Shown here one piece after another: positions 5,639 to 24,000 of a DNA stretch of 24,000 nucleotides. Origin of the DNA: Zetaproteobacteria bacterium CG1_02_55_237 (lineage in GTDB: Bacteria; Pseudomonadota; Zetaproteobacteria; Mariprofundales; Mariprofundaceae); NCBI GenBank assembly GCA_001871195.1, contig MNXA01000045.1, positions 21,845 to 45,844 on the forward strand, written 5' to 3'. Each line of letters begins with the position of its first letter. The first letter of the stretch is position 1. Both the position numbers and the translations under genes were made by a program. The notes beneath the pieces are model-generated. The model was not told where the DNA came from, did not search any database, and worked only from the letters and a program-made list of their open reading frames with translations.

Positions 5639-5651
5639 TAGCGTTGATATG

Positions 5652-5691
5652 AAAAAAACGGCAGGTCTTTTCGGCCTGCCGTTTTGTTTTT
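5652..5691 (+). terminator. Rho-independent terminator of rpoD
   Basis: AAAAAAACGGCAGG-TCTTTTCGG-CCTGCCGTTTTGTTTTT: an 8-bp stem (ACGGCAGG/CCTGCCGT) followed by a T-run, 14 nt after the rpoD stop. Confidence 0.8.
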
Positions 5692-5812
5692 ATCCCCTGA
5701 TTAGAAACCGCTGCACTACAGGACTCACAGAGAGTGCCGGGAAAACCAAACCGACAAATCAGGTGCCTGGGTGTTGCTAAAGCCTCTTGAGTGGTGATGG
5801 TTTTTCTCTGTG

Positions 5813-5986
5813 GCGAATGCCTTATCTTCTTCTTTGCGTGCCCAAAGAAGAAGCAAGAAAGGGCACCCACGGGCAGCTGTGAAGGCTCCGGGCCGGGCCC
5901 CTGTCCGTCGGCGCAAACCGGGAATTAAGCCCCCTCTTTTTGCGCAAGGCCCCGCCGGTCAGGTACCCGCCCCGGCACAGCTGCAA
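5813..5986. repeat. Structured intergenic repeat, copy 1 (REP/MITE-like or ncRNA; unclassified)
   Basis: About 170 nt, alignable to 23654-23826 in the same orientation. The first ~55 nt are near-identical. It contains an 11-bp hairpin (CTTCTTCTTTG-CGTGCC-CAAAGAAGAAG, 5817-5844), an alternative GTGCCC/GGGCAC pairing (5829-5834 with 5852-5857), and a ~126-nt imperfect hairpin (5857-5982) closed by GCAGCTGTG/CACAGCTGC. Confidence 0.8.
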
Positions 5987-6096
5987 GTGGGACCGAAGCC
6001 AAAGAAAGGGACAAAGGCAGGGGGATATTCTCTTTCGCAAGAGTAGTCATCCTGATGGTCTTCGCGGTGAATCGATTCCGGGCTTATTCGGGAGGA

Positions 6097-6891
6097 CTAC
6101 TCGGGAGGAATGTGGATGCGCTCGATACGTTCGGCGCGGCGTGTTTGTGGGTTGATGCCGACCAGGGTGGCAAAAATACTCGCACCGCGTTCTGCAGCGG
6201 TAAATCGTTGCGGCATGCGCTCGATCATGCGTTTGAGCGCGCTCTCTACCTGCATGCCGATGATGGACTGGTAGCAGCCTGTCATGCCGAGGTCGGTCTG
6301 ATAGGCCGTACCCTTGGGTAGAATGGTTTCATCGCAGGTCGGCACATGCGTATGTGTACCGAAAACGAAGGACGCGCGTCCATCCAGATGCCAGCCCATG
6401 CCCATTTTTTCGCTGGTGGCTTCGGCATGCATGTCGACGATGATGGCTGATACGTCGTTGGGGATGTCATCCATGATGTTGTTTGCAGCGGCGAACGGGC
6501 AGTCCCATCCCCCCATGAATACCTGACCAATCAGATTGACCACGGCAATGCGATGTCCTGCCGCCGTTTCGCGTATCGTCCAGCCGCGACCGGGGGCTGC
6601 GGAAGTAAAATTGGCCGGTCGGACAAAGCGATCATCCCTGTCCATCACCGGCATTATTTCGCGCTGGTCCCAGCAATGGTTGCCGTTGGTCAGCACATCA
6701 ACGCCCAGGTTGAACATTTCATCGGCTGTTTTTTCGGTCAGCCCGAAACCGGAGGCGAGGTTTTCCCCGTTGGCCACCACGAAGTCGATCTGATGCCGGT
6801 CGATCAGGCTGGAAAGATGCGACTGCAGGGCGCGCCTGCCGGCTCTGCCAATGATGTCGCCGATGGCAAGGATGTTCAGTAATTCCGGCAT
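6097..6891 (-). CDS. YmdB-like metallophosphoesterase (TIGR00282 family; 2',3'-cyclic-nucleotide phosphodiesterase-like)
   Basis: The ORF track gives 6097..7038, but family similarity begins at MPELLNILAIGDIIGRAGRRAL (ATG at 6891..6889). Typical motifs: GDIIGRAGR, VANGENLASGFGLT, GNHCWDQRE and VDMHAEATSEK. The upstream extension overlaps the 5-FCL gene, so it was trimmed. Confidence 0.85.
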   Translation of the reverse strand: MPELLNILAIGDIIGRAGRRALQSHLSSLIDRHQIDFVVANGENLASGFGLTEKTADEMFNLGVDVLTNGNHCWDQREIMPVMDRDDRFVRPANFTSAAPGRGWTIRETAAGHRIAVVNLIGQVFMGGWDCPFAAANNIMDDIPNDVSAIIVDMHAEATSEKMGMGWHLDGRASFVFGTHTHVPTCDETILPKGTAYQTDLGMTGCYQSIIGMQVESALKRMIERMPQRFTAAERGASIFATLVGINPQTRRAERIERIHIPPE

Positions 6892-7466
6892 GCGATGTTT
6901 TCTTCCTCGGTAATAATGATGTCCAGCGGAATATCGTGATTCTCGGCTGGTATGGGTGGACATTCCTGACAGGCAAAGGCCAATCCAACACTCAGCAGGA
7001 TATGGTTTTTTGCCTCGCCAAGCCAGCGGTCGAAGCACCCCTTGCCCAAGCCGAGACGATTGCCGCTTCTGTCGAAACCGACCAGCGGGCAGGCAAGCAC
7101 GGCCGGTTTATCCGCAGGCGACCATGGTTCTCCATCCACAGGCTCCATGATGCCGAAGCTGCCGCGCTGCCATCGGGTTTGGGCATCAATGCGCTGCCAA
7201 TGCATATGTCCGGCATGATGGGTGACCGGGGCGTAAACATCCCGGCCGGCCAGTCCTGCGCATGCCTCAAATAGCTGAGTGGTATCCACTTCATCGCTGA
7301 GTGAGCGATAAATCAGCAGAGGGCTGTCGGATAAGCGGCTGTCGTGCTCAGCCAGATAATCGAGCAAGCCTTGCACGATTCTTGCGGAGGCATTCTGGCG
7401 CATCTGTTCGGGCATTGCGCGCCGGCGGGCCAGCGCCTGCTGTCGGAGTTGGTCTTTGTTGTTCAT
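6876..7466 (-). CDS. 5-formyltetrahydrofolate cyclo-ligase
   Basis: 196 aa, with KDQLRQQALARRRAM...LLIYRSLSDEVDT...PLVGFDRSGNRLGLGKGCFDRWL...HDIPLDIIITEE, the MTHFS/YgfA family pattern. It lies directly downstream of a 6S RNA, as in the E. coli zapA-ssrS-ygfA arrangement. Confidence 0.9.
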   Translation of the reverse strand: MNNKDQLRQQALARRRAMPEQMRQNASARIVQGLLDYLAEHDSRLSDSPLLIYRSLSDEVDTTQLFEACAGLAGRDVYAPVTHHAGHMHWQRIDAQTRWQRGSFGIMEPVDGEPWSPADKPAVLACPLVGFDRSGNRLGLGKGCFDRWLGEAKNHILLSVGLAFACQECPPIPAENHDIPLDIIITEEENIACRNY

Positions 7467-7544: not shown

Positions 7545-7735
7545 ATAAAAAGGGCGCCCCCGCGCTGACGTATTGGCAATAATGTGCCGAACCCTCTCAA
7601 TTGAGGTGGGCGCCGCACTCTGGCGTCAGGTTTCCCGAAAAACGGGATACACACGACCAGAATAGCTAAGCTCCCGGTCAGCAATTATCGGCTCGGGCAA
7701 TAAGTTGCCTTACGCTCAACGCAGGGGCGCTTCTG
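7545..7735 (-). ncRNA. ssrS: 6S RNA (boundaries approximate, +/-10 nt)
   Basis: Position between zapA and 5-FCL matches the gammaproteobacterial synteny. The minus strand contains CCCGAGCCGAUAAUUG (E. coli 6S has CCUGAGCCGAUAUUU) and CAAUUGAGAGGGUUCGG (E. coli has CCAAGGGUUCAAGGGUU). The 5' segment GCGCCCCUGCGUUGAGCGUAAGGCAA can pair with the 3' segment UUGCCAAUACGUCAGCGCGGGGGCGC to make the long closing helix. Implied length is ~185 nt. The 3' end is followed by a U-run. Confidence 0.7.
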
Positions 7736-17403: not shown

Positions 17404-17766
17404 TTATGTCTCTTCCAGCCACATGCGTGCTCGAGCAGCATCGGCGTGATCGAAATATCGGACTGCTGCTTTCGTAAAGGGCTTGCAGAAAACAGCCATG
17501 CCCTGCTGCCACTTCCTGTCTCCAACCATGGCTAGGCGTTCAATGTCGGCGAAGTGTTCGATGCCGAACTTGAAATCCTCCCAGGCCGCACTGAGCTCCC
17601 ATCCGTGAAAGTCAGGCATATCAAACAGCAGGTTCAATTTTCCGTGTTGCCGAATGAGTCGTTCGAATGCGGGCACAAATTGCGCGTAATCGGCCTTCAC
17701 CAACTTTCCGCTGACGTGAACGACAAGCACCCTGCCGTCATTTTCTTCATTGAATTGAATCGACAT
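17404..17766 (-). CDS. STAS/SpoIIAA-like domain protein (DUF3478-type)
   Basis: 120 aa from ATG 17766, with SD AGGAGTG 5 nt upstream: [88 protein letters not shown]. This is the characteristic SpoIIAA-like/STAS-SEC14 pattern. The track ORF's 29-codon extension (to 17853) is a PPK2 remnant, not part of this gene. Confidence 0.85.
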   Translation of the reverse strand: MSIQFNEENDGRVLVVHVSGKLVKADYAQFVPAFERLIRQHGKLNLLFDMPDFHGWELSAAWEDFKFGIEHFADIERLAMVGDRKWQQGMAVFCKPFTKAAVRYFDHADAARARMWLEET

Positions 17767-17772
17767 GTTCAC

Positions 17773-17830
17773 TCCTATTGCCGTTTCCGGGTGACTTCCG
17801 CTCAGGCCGTTTAGCCCGCGAAGCAGGTCG
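17773..17830 (-). pseudogene. Remnant of a PPK2 3' end
   Basis: 17773-17800 (TCCTATTGCCGTTTCCGGGTGACTTCCG) matches 19271-19298 (TCCTTATGCCGTTCCCGGGTGACTTCCG) inside the intact PPK2 gene. Translated, LLRGLNGLSGSHPETAIG compares with [19 protein letters not shown]. Similarity decays beyond ~17830. Confidence 0.55.
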
Positions 17831-19118: not shown

Positions 19119-19202
19119 TCACTCCAGCGCAGGGCCGATGCCTGCATTTTGAGCAGCGAAGATATTGTTCCGTGTATTTTCTTCGTTAAATTGAATCGAC
19201 AT
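19119..19202 (-). pseudogene. Remnant of a STAS-gene 5' end (27-codon ORF)
   Basis: Minus strand GTGAACATGTCGATTCAATTTAACGAAGAAAAT matches the start of the intact STAS gene (GTGAACATGTCGATTCAATTCAATGAAGAAAAT at 17772..17740). It encodes MSIQFNEEN, then diverges and stops ([27 protein letters not shown]). It overlaps the last codons of PPK2 in another frame. Confidence 0.6.
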
Positions 19203-20112
19203 GTTCACCCCCTTCCCGGCTTTCTGCCTGCGATCCTGTTTCTGTTAACTGCTTGCGGATGGCTTCTAATTCCTTATGCCGTTCCCGGGTGACTTCCGGG
19301 TAAGCCATGTTCAGCCCCTGAAACAACTCAAGCACAATCCGGGAAACAATCAGTCGGGCATGTTTTTTATCGTCAGCCGGAACAACATACCAGGGCGCAT
19401 GATCCGTGCTTGTCGCACTCAGACATGCCTCATAGGCCTTTTGATACTGCTTCCAGCATTTCCTTTCACGCATGTCCGCAAGGCTGAACTTCCAGTTCTT
19501 GTCAGGCTGATCAATGCGTTTAAGAAAACGCTTTTGCTGCTCTGTTTTCGACAGATGCAGGAATATCTTGATGATGCGGGTGCCATTGCGATAAAGATGC
19601 TCCTCCATATCCACGATGGAGCGATAGCGCTCATCCCAGATGGCATTCTCGTCGAGAAGATCATCCGGCAGCCATTGGCTGTCGAGCAGCTCCGGATGCA
19701 CACGCACGACCAGCACCTCTTCGTAGTATGAACGATTGAAAATACCGATCCGCCCGCGTTCCGGCAGACGGCAGTTCGAACGCCAGAGAAAGTCATGCTT
19801 TAACTCTTCACTGCTCGGCTGCTTAAAGCTGAAAACCTGACAGCCCTGGGGATTTACTCCGGACATGACATGCCGGATCGCGCCGTCTTTACCACCTGCA
19901 TCCATACCCTGAAAAATAAGCAGCACAGCATGGCGGCCGGATGCATAGTGCAGGCGCTGCAAGGCGCTCAATTCCTTAACCTGTTTTTTCAGCTGTTTTT
20001 TATACTGCTTCCCGGACTCGAAAACAGGCTCATCTTTCGTTTTCCGTTTTGTGAGACTGAGCTTTTCTCCGGGACACACGCGCAACGCGGTTAAGGGGAT
20101 GTTCGTCGCCAT
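19186..20112 (-). CDS. ppk2: Polyphosphate kinase 2 family protein
   Basis: 308 aa. P-loop [11 protein letters not shown], plus [32 protein letters not shown] and [16 protein letters not shown], which are canonical single-domain PPK2 motifs. Strong SD (AAAAGGAGG) 5 nt upstream. Confidence 0.93.
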
Positions 20113-22471: not shown

Positions 22472-23611
22472 CTAGGATAGCCGGTTGCGGAAATCCTCGT
22501 AGGTAAAGCGGCGCACCACTTCGATCTCGCCGGATTCGCGCAGGATGGCGATATCCGGATGGCGCACGCCATTGAACATGGTCGTCTTGACCATGGTGTA
22601 ATGAATCATGTCCTCGAAGACCAGTCTTGAGCCGGGTCTGAGCTCCTTATTGAAGGAATAGTCGCCAATCACATCGCCGGCCAGACATGAGGTGCCGCCG
22701 AGGCGGTAGGTGAAGGCCTTTTCTGTCGGCTGTCCGGAGCCGGTTATTATCGGTCGATAGGGTTGTTCGAGCACATCCGGCATATGCGCCGTGGCAGATA
22801 TATCGAGGATGGCAACGGGGAGTCCGTCGGTGGGCACTATATCCAGCACCGAGGTGACAAGTTCGCCGGTGCGCCAGGCCACAGCACCTCCCGGCTCCAG
22901 ATAAACCTCCACACCCCACTTTTCACGGAAATCGCTGATGCGACGGATCAGCAGGTCGACATCGTAATCCTTGTGTGTCATCAGATGCCCGCCGCCGAAA
23001 TTAACCCATTTCAGTTTCGGGATGTGATCGGCGAATTTCTTCTCGAAGGCGTCGATCAGGCGCACCGAGGATGCGGCCAGGTTCTCGCACAGGGCGTGTG
23101 CATGCAGCCCTTCCATCCCGCTGAGGTCGGTTCCAGCCAGATGTTCGGGGCGCACGCCGAGGCGAGAGCCGGAGAAGCAGGGGTTGTAGAGATCGGTTTC
23201 CACTTCGGCGATGCCCGGATTCACCCGGATGCCGCAGGAGATGCCCGCTGCCAGCGCCTTTGCTCCGAACTGCTGCCACTGGGCCACGGAGTTGAATACG
23301 ATATGCTCGGCCATGCTGCAGATTTCGTCGAATTCATCCTCGCGGAAGGCCGCTGAATAGATGTGGTTCTCGCCTTTGAATTCCTCGGCGGAAAGCTTCA
23401 GTTCATAAAGAGAGCTTGCTGTGCAGCCGGGTAGGTATTGCCGGACCATTGGAAAGGCTGACCACATGGAAAAGCCCTTCAGGGCGAGAATAATCTTGCA
23501 GCCGGCCTCAGCCTGAACCCGCCTGAGCACTTCTAGGTTGGCGCGCAGTTTGGCCTCCTCCAGCACATAGGCCGGGGAGGGGCAGGTGGCAATCCAGTCG
23601 GGTGTCTTCAT
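22472..23611 (-). CDS. nspC: Carboxynorspermidine/carboxyspermidine decarboxylase
   Basis: 379 aa, MKTPDWIATCPSPAYVLEEAKLRANLEVLRRVQAEAGCKIILALKGFSMW...NFGGGH...GGTSCLAGDVIG. This is the NspC-type PLP decarboxylase pattern. It lies downstream of a carboxynorspermidine dehydrogenase-like gene. Confidence 0.88.
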   Translation of the reverse strand: MKTPDWIATCPSPAYVLEEAKLRANLEVLRRVQAEAGCKIILALKGFSMWSAFPMVRQYLPGCTASSLYELKLSAEEFKGENHIYSAAFREDEFDEICSMAEHIVFNSVAQWQQFGAKALAAGISCGIRVNPGIAEVETDLYNPCFSGSRLGVRPEHLAGTDLSGMEGLHAHALCENLAASSVRLIDAFEKKFADHIPKLKWVNFGGGHLMTHKDYDVDLLIRRISDFREKWGVEVYLEPGGAVAWRTGELVTSVLDIVPTDGLPVAILDISATAHMPDVLEQPYRPIITGSGQPTEKAFTYRLGGTSCLAGDVIGDYSFNKELRPGSRLVFEDMIHYTMVKTTMFNGVRHPDIAILRESGEIEVVRRFTYEDFRNRLS

Positions 23612-23653
23612 TTATCCTTGTTACCTCTTTGCTCTCATTGCGTTTGTCACGAA

Positions 23654-23826
23654 TTATCTTTTTCTTTGCGTGCCCAAAGAAGAAGCAAGAAAGGGCACCC
23701 ACGGGTAGCTGTGAATTCCCGGTCCAGTCGCTTGCCCGTCGGGTGCAAACCGGGAATAAAGCCCCTTCTTTTTGCGCAAGGCCCGCCGGTCAAGCACCCG
23801 GGCCGGCACAGCTACACGCGGGACCC
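23654..23826. repeat. Structured intergenic repeat, copy 2
   Basis: Alignable to 5813-5986 in the same orientation. It has an 11-bp hairpin at 23658-23685 (one G.T pair) and a large hairpin at ~23698-23823 closed by GTAGCTGTG/CACAGCTAC. It occupies most of the 240-nt spacer between the CANSDH stop and the nspC start. Confidence 0.8.
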
Positions 23827-23851
23827 GTAGTCACCATACTCGCAGACGGTG

Positions 23852-24000
23852 TCAGGTCTGCGGGGAAATGTCGTCGAGCGGTTTGTAGGGCACATCCACC
23901 CAGGGCAGGCCGCAGGCATTCAGATCGCGCATGAAGGGATCGGGATCGAGCTGCTCCATATTCCACACGCCGGCTTGCATCCATGTGCCGGTAATCATCT
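23852..24000 (-). CDS. Carboxynorspermidine dehydrogenase (saccharopine dehydrogenase family), C-terminal 48 codons; the 5' part lies beyond the right edge
   Basis: Not in the ORF track. My translation of the minus strand gives ...MITGTWMQAGVWNMEQLDPDPFMRDLNACGLPWVDVPYKPLDDISPQT*, with the stop at 23854..23852. The VxNxEELDPDPF...GLPW tail is as I recall for CANSDH. Adjacency to nspC supports the call. Confidence 0.7.
   Translation of the reverse strand, partial: MITGTWMQAGVWNMEQLDPDPFMRDLNACGLPWVDVPYKPLDDISPQT

Follow-up and report, generated by a model that had tools for sequence, protein, structure and literature searches.

Bacterial repeats with the potential to fold into an intrastrand triple helix have been known since BoxC, the Escherichia coli family also called PIT (potential intrastrand triplex) or TM_ECO, which has the form CCCTCNCCC-N3-6-GGGNGAGGG-N3-GGGNGAGGG (Holder et al. 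2015, PMC4666352, a study that builds on Hoyne et al. 2000). BoxC elements are of class II, the purine motif, are always intergenic without orientation bias, and their inverted pairs always combine a type A with a type B copy (PMC4666352). As single-stranded DNA (ssDNA), BoxC forms a stable triplex in vitro that blocks DNA polymerase, and none was detected in vivo; the repeats show no promoter or terminator activity, are associated with local genome variability, and their function is unknown (PMC4666352). Comparative evidence that such triplexes are selected was previously lacking. Here we describe a related family, starting from two copies in a 24,000-nt stretch of the genome of Zetaproteobacteria bacterium CG1_02_55_237 (contig MNXA01000045.1, positions 21,845 to 45,844; this whole stretch is the window). 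The family is a dispersed, non-coding, insertion-type repeat, each copy of which is one unit, and it provides strong sequence-level evidence for a natural bacterial triple helix under selection, in which the third strand covaries base by base and a covarying pseudoknot ties it in place.

The initial annotation had placed two copies of a structured repeat at 5813-5986 and 23654-23826. Both are indeed present in the same orientation, on the plus strand and about 17.8 kb apart, with bounds that we refined to 5826-5994 (copy 1) and 23658-23826 (copy 2), and a family-profile nhmmer search of the window returned no matches beyond these two. Each copy consists of a 41-nt terminal module, a structured body that is here a hairpin of about 126 nt, and a short tail. 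The copies are 86% identical over the whole element, 97.6% identical in the module and 82.7% identical in the hairpin body. For either copy, on either strand, the fold beat all 200 dinucleotide shuffles (z -3.6 to -4.0).

On the plus strand, the module is made up of a P1 5' arm of 10-11 nt, a loop of 6 nt, a P1 3' arm of 10-11 nt, a linker of 7 nt and a P2' strand of 4-6 nt. In copy 1, the pyrimidine 5' arm CTTCTTCTTTG (5826-5836) forms the 11-bp helix P1 with the purine 3' arm CAAAGAAGAAG (5843-5853). The last four to five bases of the intervening loop CGTGCC (5837-5842) pair with the P2 3' strand GGGCAC (5861-5866), the complement of the loop string GTGCC(C), and this pairing covaries. The linker or third strand CAAGAAA (5854-5860; UUUCUUG on the minus strand) is an exact mirror of positions 1-6 of the purine arm, counted after its C. 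Copy 2 repeats this layout on the same strand with the 5' arm CTTTTTCTTTG (23658-23668), in which one C-to-T change gives U.G on the plus strand and C.A on the minus strand, the loop CGTGCC as P2 5' strand (23669-23674), the 3' arm CAAAGAAGAAG (23675-23685), the linker CAAGAAA (23686-23692) and the P2 3' strand GGGCAC (23693-23698). With the order CTTCTTCTTTG-CGTGCC-CAAAGAAGAAG-CAAGAAA, the window module does not fit the TM_ECO consensus.

Both stems of the module covary. P1 columns 12/27 and 13/26 switch together between C-G/U-A and U-A/C-G in 5 of the 13 elements of type A, the subtype to which both window copies belong, and the foot pair of P1 varies with covariation as C-G, G-C or U-A. Covariation in P2 is heavy: across 44 distinct modules every column holds at least four pair types, one of them being CG in 14, GC in 12, TA in 13 and AT in 3, and within type A three of the four pairs show double changes. 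Because P1 and P2 both covary, the two 5' hairpins that had been taken as mutually exclusive are instead the two stems of one H-type pseudoknot.

The linker obeys a second rule. Read backwards, it equals purine-arm positions 1-6 in about 74 of 81 distinct modules, the exceptions being one-base bulges. An arm AAAGAA is accompanied by the linker AAGAAA, AAGAAA by AAAGAA, AAAAAA by AAAAAA and AAAAGA by AGAAAA, and the linker G tracks the G-C pair of P1 in all variants, whether this falls at position 3, 4, 5 or 7 or is missing altogether. In two related loci with a P1 of 15-16 bp (L059 and L145, read by eye), the longer linker mirrors 10-11 positions, G included. About 3 bp of P1 always extend past the third strand, and this constant length suggests a fixed turn. 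Watson-Crick pairing between linker and purine arm was rejected since it fits some variants only, while the parallel, mirror register fits all of them, L059 and L145 among them. When about 1 Mb of fetched loci was scanned for the whole arrangement, 103 matches were found, compared with 0 in shuffled copies. Template-based mutation yields direct or inverted repeats, not mirror repeats, and selection is therefore the likely cause of the mirror relation. As a separate observation, a hairpin containing GCTACGCTCA is inserted in the turn of some modules (L067, L134, L083).

A linker that mirrors the purine strand of a neighbouring helix is the signature of a triple helix. The module is a potential intrastrand triplex, which falls into class II when read on the plus strand and into class IV when read on the minus strand. 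It may form on the plus strand through A.A-T and G.G-C triplets in the antiparallel purine motif, or on the minus strand through U.A-U and C+.G-C triplets in the parallel pyrimidine motif. In either case the pairing of loop with flank, next to the third strand, would additionally lock the module, and the conserved trait is the fold, not the sequence.

The module is followed by a long imperfect hairpin, which occupies 5866-5991 on the plus strand in copy 1 and 23698-23822 on the plus strand in copy 2, as drawn from consensus folds and from minimum free energy (MFE) folding. In copy 1 it has a base helix CCCAC/GTGGG, the outer helix GCAGCTGTG/CACAGCTGC and an apical helix GCGCAAA/TTTGCGC. Most of the pairing described earlier for this region was confirmed. 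The outer helix carries a double change from GCAGCTGTG/CACAGCTGC to GTAGCTGTG/CACAGCTAC (alignment columns 55/165, C-G in copy 1 and U-A in copy 2); the contrast of CCTG/CAGG with CTTG/CAAG is a second true double change (columns 82/144, again C-G in copy 1 and U-A in copy 2); and the apical helix is conserved. The most divergent segment does pair in both copies, with registers that differ between them. Beyond the hairpin, type-A similarity extends for about 12 nt into a conserved 3' tail, ACCGAAGCCAAA at 5992-6003 (plus strand) in copy 1, for which the family consensus is ACCCrArGTCAAA.

Selection on pairing, proposed on the basis of two copies, holds across the type-A alignment, which comprises 13 elements of about 180 nt (the two window copies and 11 relatives). 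With P2 added to the consensus fold, standard pairs occupy 95.2% of cells and both sides have changed in 26 of the 55 pairs, a level that 0 of 500 shuffles reached, and sliding the partners lowered pairing to 39-47%. The bodies of other subfamilies differ. The type-A base GTAG...CTAC is absent from them; zetaproteobacterial type B and the Chitinophagaceae type share, after the same module, a common hairpin and then GGTTCCCTGA / GGGTTCCCTCAG; and the type that we call 'ATCAAG' has a hairpin with the loop AACTCGCTACGCTCAAACA in common with the prophage type. In the Pasteurellaceae-type prophage element, the 45-nt hairpin CGGAAAATTTTTAACTCGCTACGCTCAAACAAGAAAAATTTTCCTAA, whose loop AACTCGCTACGCTCAAACA it has in common with an unrelated AT-rich subfamily, is precisely present or absent between strains (L029, L036 and L038 compared with L020 and others; around 6745-6790 of L020).

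In agreement with the first description, neither window copy contains a conserved open reading frame (ORF), and neither has terminal inverted repeats (TIRs), a target-site duplication (TSD) or an adjoining U-tract. Coding potential was rejected because, on reading the sequences, the copies share no start codon or frame, and an intrinsic terminator was rejected because neither hairpin is followed by a U-tract.

The family extends well beyond the window. An exact-pattern scan of one genome per species recovered ten loci, all from metagenome-assembled genomes of Mariprofundaceae/Zetaproteobacteria and one or two per genome. These loci sit between unrelated housekeeping genes, and in all of them the first ~41 nt are nearly invariant while the following domain differs by subtype. 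Locus L007 is the orthologue of copy 1, with the order dnaG-rpoD-element-ymdB kept, and two extra copies found upstream in L007 and L008 have an altered hairpin and loop with matching changes elsewhere. A looser hairpin-arm pattern matched 32 loci in viral contigs and at least 120 in metagenome contigs, and about 100 of the looser-pattern loci carry the full module among the matches listed. The further copies that a genuine family called for are thus present, across several phyla. One lies in a P2/HP1-like prophage of Pasteurellaceae type, with a Haemophilus uptake sequence nearby, where the element stands between the small terminase and head-completion genes; one locus is Chitinophagaceae-like and another Dechloromonas/Rhodocyclaceae-like. 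The same fold occurs across Bacteroidota and three classes of Proteobacteria with different bodies attached. In addition, a 1,050-nt contig (L083) consists almost entirely of tandem and inverted copies of two element types, one with a different P1 (ACTTTTTTT/AAAAAAAGT); because it holds arrayed copies with a P1 of this kind, the family is wider than the search pattern and arrays are possible.

Database searches gave no earlier record of the element. With Rfam 15 at the gathering threshold, the window yields 6S RNA (SsrS) only (7553-7730, minus strand, 91 bits against a gathering score of 46.4), as expected from the suggestion that the structure is undescribed, and permissive Rfam scans of both copies and 30 related loci produced chance hairpin matches only. 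BLAST against plasmids and phages gave no element matches, the single phage match being to the flanking gpL gene. A literal sequence search of the literature found none, and no description of this triplex-pseudoknot family was found in the openly searchable literature, subscription-only papers being outside its reach.

Copy 2 lies between two minus-strand genes, for a saccharopine-dehydrogenase-like protein and a carboxynorspermidine decarboxylase (the latter identical to a protein annotated from a zetaproteobacterial metagenome-assembled genome of the CG12 sample set), in a segment of the minus strand (23612-23851) that runs from the saccharopine-dehydrogenase-like stop codon TGA (23852-23854) to the decarboxylase start codon at 23611. 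In the window and in L163 the site is filled by the element, and about 240-250 nt separate the two genes. In three relatives the site is empty, with the genes overlapping by 4 nt (L164), 3 nt apart (L166) or 19 nt apart (L165). Copy 2 is thus an insertion into a compact operon, which bears out the earlier proposal of a non-autonomous element that inserts. The minus strand has AAGAGG and AAGGAT downstream of the module, just before the new decarboxylase ATG (23612-23657; 2455-2500 in L163), and the insert seems to provide a ribosome-binding site (RBS) and start codon in place of an ancestral overlapping GTGA junction.

Comparison with L163 further points to exchange between elements. Its protein is 85% identical to that of the window and the element bodies are 89% identical, while the spacers cannot be aligned and the modules are of different kinds, GUGCCC ('main') in the window and GCGGCC ('var') in L163, with all changes in P1, linker and P2 matched. 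Since bodies of 89% identity carry different module types, module swapping or gene conversion between copies is indicated. The boundaries of insertion are sharp: in five 'ATCAAG' copies from five unrelated contexts, similarity begins exactly at P1 and stops ~175 nt further on. No TIR or TSD was detected at either window copy, in the five 'ATCAAG' copies or on comparing the filled with the empty operon sites, and neither the 'ATCAAG' copies nor that site comparison revealed a conserved target sequence.

Inverted pairs of elements are frequent. Head-to-head pairs in L007, L057 and L124 share a conserved spacer of 58-66 nt and combine one 'main' and one 'var' module each; tail-to-tail pairs exist too, and the pair in L081 is likewise main plus var. 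Upstream of copy 1 we found a diverged spacer and an apparent remnant of a lost partner half. This spacer remnant, 'S' (5783-5825, plus strand), contains two CTCT(K)nGGYGA motifs (CCTCTTGAGTGGTGATGG, TTTTTCTCTGTGGCGAATGCC), is homologous to the spacer of the three head-to-head pairs and has weak similarity to copy 2.

A motif CTCTGTGGTGAA, with variants CTCTTGCGGTGG and TCTTCGCGGTGAA, recurs in tandem near elements, at 5783-5821 and 6049-6066 of the window and in L046, L058, L073 and L156, and motifs of this type are also seen downstream of elements in L001, L004, L007 and L009. In Zetaproteobacteria it always has the sense of the module plus strand, and in another lineage inverted pairs of elements have it as their outer ends (TTCACCACAGAG...CTCTGTGGTGAA). 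The complement of the motif is similar to the 3' tail of 16S rRNA (AUCACC). The stretch that follows copy 1 (5995-6048) holds a string resembling linker plus P2, CCAAAGAAAGGGAC, and a small hairpin, TTCTCTTTCGCAAGAG, possibly the debris of a decayed module.

Copy 1 is placed between convergent genes, dnaG-rpoD on the plus strand and a YmdB-like gene on the minus strand that ends at 6097. After rpoD, a terminator-like hairpin flanked by an A-run and a T-run (5646-5694) was called by the scan as a plus-direction terminator; it would halt plus-strand read-through before copy 1 and, judged from its sequence, would also end minus-strand transcripts from ymdB. On the minus strand, a gene for 5-formyltetrahydrofolate cyclo-ligase (6876-7466) and then the YmdB-like gene come after the 6S RNA gene, and because these precede it, copy 1 stands at the 3' end of a minus-strand gene string. 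Both window copies, if transcribed, would be transcribed on the minus strand. No sigma-70 promoter was found beside either copy, and no promoter or terminator belongs to the element; we also rejected a promoter of the sigma-54 or sigma-70 kind within the module or in the upstream motif, because its spacing and key bases would be wrong and the scan detected none. Elsewhere in the window, two direct repeats occur at 17740-17800 and 19176-19298, one of 36 nt with 92% identity and one of 28 nt with 89%; they span the starts of two minus-strand ORFs, one of 149 aa and one for polyphosphate kinase 2 (PPK2), and they look like paralogous 5' ends or shared leaders.

Across the family, elements are intergenic, show no gene-class bias and are mixed in orientation. 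Of the elements that lie between co-directional genes, 11 have their minus strand running with the genes and 7 their plus strand, and the body-side gene runs in the direction of the minus strand 35 times, against 21. Clustering of ORFs within 3 kb of about 80 elements revealed no protein family that recurs beyond shared synteny.

As to strand, no single-strand RNA reading is clearly favoured. The initial annotation had seen a hint of a plus-strand RNA in three C-to-T changes of copy 2, which are present and give plus-strand G.U pairs (columns 9/30, 94/126 and 102/116). Two plus-strand A.C pairs, G.U on the minus strand, had been overlooked (columns 49/170 and 76/150), and the hint did not withstand the wider comparison: plus-strand G.U stood against plus-strand A.C at 3 to 2 between the window copies, 7 to 14 in the 13-element alignment and 6 to 7 in P2. 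MFE was lower on the minus strand in 49 of 73 elements, and the composition-corrected z-score was equal between strands, being better on the minus strand in 37 and on the plus strand in 36. Judged against canonical H-type geometry, the pseudoknot loop lengths suit either strand and are tight on the minus strand for the few cases with a 6-bp P2. In some subfamilies the plus strand can be read as carrying motifs that resemble UNCG-type and GNRA-type tetraloops, but loops of the GCGAAAGC type are stable as DNA mini-hairpins too. The minus-strand sequence fits U.A-U and C+.G-C triplets holding an A-rich tract, and a plus-strand DNA purine motif fits equally. If the molecule is RNA, the minus strand is chemically favoured, because RNA reportedly forms triplexes of the pyrimidine motif and not those of the purine motif (PMC4666352).

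The evidence supports the structure and the family well, but not the function. The reading that we rank first, with a probability of roughly 0.42, is a structure-dependent DNA repeat of the BoxC/REP class (REP, repetitive extragenic palindromic), followed in order by a minus-strand RNA cap, an element mobilised by a transposase and a plus-strand small RNA. As proposed for E. coli BoxC/PIT, selection would act on a folded single DNA strand. The element would fold when single-stranded, whether during lagging-strand synthesis or repair or in an intermediate of transposition or copy choice, and the triplex-capped hairpin would be the substrate of whatever copies, converts or inserts the element, by way of polymerase stalling or a structure-specific enzyme. 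It would then be a selfish or genome-architectural repeat that tolerates either orientation, and any effects on host transcripts would be side effects. Beyond the covariation of P1, P2 and body and the parallels with BoxC/TM_ECO, a DNA-level or selfish character is suggested by the lack of a wobble asymmetry between strands, by mixed orientation and by the absence of a promoter or terminator of its own, as well as by the sharp start at P1, the insertion of copy 2, the decayed partner of copy 1, the module swap and the lack of a linked protein family.

Several points weigh against this DNA-repeat reading. The bodies of copy 1 and L007 are only 72% identical and the spacers of copy 2 and L163 cannot be aligned, yet these resident orthologues have kept their pairing through many compensatory changes; a host-level function accounts for this more easily than selfish spread does, unless gene conversion is frequent. 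Copy number is apparently low, at one or two exact-module matches per representative genome. A fold that reaches from Bacteroidota to Proteobacteria would need machinery that is universal or often co-transferred, and none was found. A.A-T triplets of the purine motif are weaker than the G.G-C triplets of BoxC, and even the BoxC triplex was not detected in vivo by Holder et al. (PMC4666352). Moreover, the window copies and their orthologues are placed for minus-strand transcription, which would give an RNA-compatible U.A-U/C+.G-C triplex, and the plus-strand UNCG- and GNRA-type tetraloops of some subfamilies are hints of RNA. The readings partly overlap, and an element can be mobile DNA and active as RNA together.

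A minus-strand RNA is the main rival, possible though on balance doubtful; the REP-like role in mRNA stability that the initial annotation suggested likewise stays a candidate. The element would be co-transcribed with the upstream gene and would form first the long hairpin and then a 3' triplex cap that, like REP stabilisers and the ENE (element for nuclear expression) and MALAT1 triple helices, stabilises the upstream cistron or defines a stable RNA end. In this design UUUCUU would lie in the major groove of P1 through U.A-U and C+.G-C triplets, locked by the P1 loop, and the cap would hide the A-rich 3' strand and hold off 3'-to-5' exonucleases. The triplet chemistry agrees with such a cap: the canonical pyrimidine motif is present, with a C opposite every internal G-C pair, and it is the motif that forms in RNA where the purine motif does not (PMC4666352). 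The element boundary, moreover, coincides with the end of the A-rich arm. Placement agrees in part. The operon that contains copy 2, and likewise that of L163, has the same direction as the minus strand. Copy 1 and L007 are found on the minus strand downstream of ymdB and, by our reading of the sequence, before a hairpin that possibly terminates this strand. The prophage copy of Pasteurellaceae type runs in the direction of the late operon, and the 35-to-21 orientation of the body-side gene points the same way. However, 38% of copies are oppositely oriented, some of them inside co-directional gene pairs. The excess of 14 plus A.C (minus G.U) over 7 plus G.U pairs in type-A bodies also favours the minus strand, but the asymmetry is weak and is absent from P2 and from the z-scores. 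Just 0-2 loop bases would be available to cross the P2 minor groove, which is tight, and the tetraloop-like motifs are on the opposite strand.

Mobilisation in trans as a conventional MITE (miniature inverted-repeat transposable element) or PATE (palindrome-associated transposable element) is unlikely. The hairpins would here serve as transposase-binding ends, the candidate enzymes being HUH/Y1 transposases of the IS200/IS605 or RAYT (REP-associated tyrosine transposase) type. Insertion polymorphism at an orthologous site, the sharp ends, inverted pairs whose outer ends form long inverted repeats and a type-A base, GTAG...CTAC, that recalls the REP tetranucleotide GTAG/GTGG would all be explained, and IS200/IS605 and REP elements normally lack TSDs and TIRs. 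Against this, in about 80 loci the 3 kb around the element contain no transposase and no recurrent gene of another kind, no TSD or conserved target sequence was seen, and single units have one conserved end only. What stays constant across phyla is a fold with a freely covarying P2, not a sequence for protein recognition.

Still less probable is a plus-strand small RNA or 5' leader that starts at P1 and folds into a classical H-type pseudoknot followed by a hairpin, for 5'-end protection or protein binding. It would have a stem S1 of 11 bp, a loop L1 of 1-2 nt, a stem S2 of 4-6 bp and an A-rich L3 of 8 nt running along S1. These loop lengths match canonical pseudoknot geometry, and similarity does start exactly at P1. 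UNCG-type (UUCG/UGCG) and GNRA-type (GAAA/GGGA/GUAA) loops occur in the type-B and 'ATCAAG' subfamilies, though d(GCGAAAGC)-type loops are stable in DNA too; the head-to-head elements of L057 appear to face outward towards divergent genes, whose starts are uncertain; and copy 2 has its three plus-strand G.U pairs. On the other hand, no promoter precedes either copy, the rpoD terminator precedes copy 1, and co-orientation is seen in only 38% of copies. Minor-groove A-minor contacts do not predict the base-specific mirroring of A with A-U and G with G-C, and a major-groove triplex on this strand would be of the purine motif, reported not to form in RNA (PMC4666352).

Regulation of the neighbouring genes in cis, by an RNA such as a riboswitch or attenuator, is very improbable, as is a functionless segmental duplication, and both are largely refuted by the context data: a pseudoknot with a triplex does resemble SAM-II and preQ1-II aptamers and copy 2 is upstream of the decarboxylase gene on the minus strand, but unrelated housekeeping genes flank every locus, position and orientation vary, relatives lack the element at the same operon junction, and chance duplication is ruled out by covariation and cross-phylum spread.

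The family supplies short, defined sequences with natural compensatory variants, which bear on whether DNA or RNA is the folded molecule. Tentatively, and with the odds against it, the module might be the first bacterial genome-encoded RNA triple-helix end-cap, ENE/MALAT1-like and pseudoknot-locked, carried by elements that insert in operons or 3' untranslated regions (UTRs) and shielding upstream RNA from 3' exonucleases, or else the recognition structure of a structure-specific DNA copying process. If RNA is the folded molecule, stabilisation by a triple helix, known from eukaryotic viruses and long non-coding RNAs, would occur in bacteria and phages as well; if it is DNA, the family would suggest that repeats are copied in a structure-driven way or undergo gene conversion. 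The family also accounts for segments that are otherwise unannotated, namely about 240 nt inserted in a polyamine operon and part of a phage late operon.

Finally, we compared the element with known systems. Three groups were rejected as candidates. An 11-6-11 layout is similar to a Xer or tyrosine-recombinase core, but the sequence is unlike dif, and the covariation of P2 speaks for a strand that folds. Integron attC sites, retron msr-msd and omega or bridge RNAs are excluded since core sites are missing and no reverse transcriptase, IscB, TnpB or recombinase is nearby; for self-cleaving ribozymes (hammerhead, pistol, HDV-like), the helix order is unfit and there is no Rfam match. MITEs such as Correia, ERIC/IRU and RUP are likewise small, non-coding and multi-copy, insert between or inside operons and form long hairpins when transcribed, whereas here there are no terminal inverted repeats, no TSD in single units and no partner insertion sequence was found. 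Triplex-containing H-type pseudoknots (telomerase RNA, SAM-II, preQ1-II and the frameshift signals of the infectious bronchitis virus, IBV, type) resemble the module in that a loop pairs with a flank and the connecting strand runs along the other helix. With an 11-bp stem, a 1-2 nt loop, a 5-6 bp stem and an 8-nt loop, its dimensions match the minimal IBV-type pseudoknot. Unlike these, the module has no ligand or gene-specific context and no coding frame, and it combines a strict polypyrimidine/polypurine helix with a base-by-base mirror rule.

On the minus strand, the element would share with ENE and MALAT1 the holding of a genome-encoded A-rich tract by two U-rich strands, through U.A-U with interspersed C+.G-C triplets, with the A-rich strand as the 3'-most part. 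In contrast to the ENE, where a U-rich internal loop clamps the tail, a folded-back 5' strand would here join a hairpin and be tied to its loop, and the present elements are bacterial, dispersed and insertion-like. With REP, BIME and REPIN elements (REP sequences, bacterial interspersed mosaic elements and REP doublets forming hairpins, respectively) the family has in common extragenic palindromic repeats, inverted pairs of two variants, compensatory stem evolution, the lack of TIRs and TSDs, and a location between cistrons or in 3' UTRs, from which REPs are able to stabilise the mRNA upstream. It differs in its unit of ~170 nt, an apparently low copy number where REP families count tens to hundreds per genome, the triplex/pseudoknot module and a fold that spans phyla; no RAYT gene or Y1 transposase was found in the element flanks, a result that covers these flanks and not a genome-wide RAYT search.

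The closest relatives are the intrastrand-triplex repeats BoxC/PIT/TM_ECO (PMC4666352), a link that was missing from the candidates listed in the initial annotation. Both have the block order of pyrimidine arm, loop, purine arm and mirror purine run (class II, or III/IV on the complement), and both are intergenic without orientation bias, form inverted pairs of two subtypes and vary in presence between relatives. In contrast to the CCCTCNCCC / GGGNGAGGG of BoxC, the arms are here A/T-rich (TTCTTYYTTG / CAARRAAGAA), and of the 10-11 pairs only 6-7 are covered by the third strand, which lacks a second loop. The BoxC loop of 3-4 nt, as read in one E. coli pair, cannot form P2, whereas the 6-nt loop of our module pairs with its flank. 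At neutral pH, the complement of the present module could form a stable RNA triplex, which the C-rich complement of BoxC could not, and the module is joined to a structured body of 100-130 nt. Taken together, these comparisons identify the module as an A/T-rich variant of the BoxC kind of repeat, to which a pseudoknot lock and an attached body have been added.

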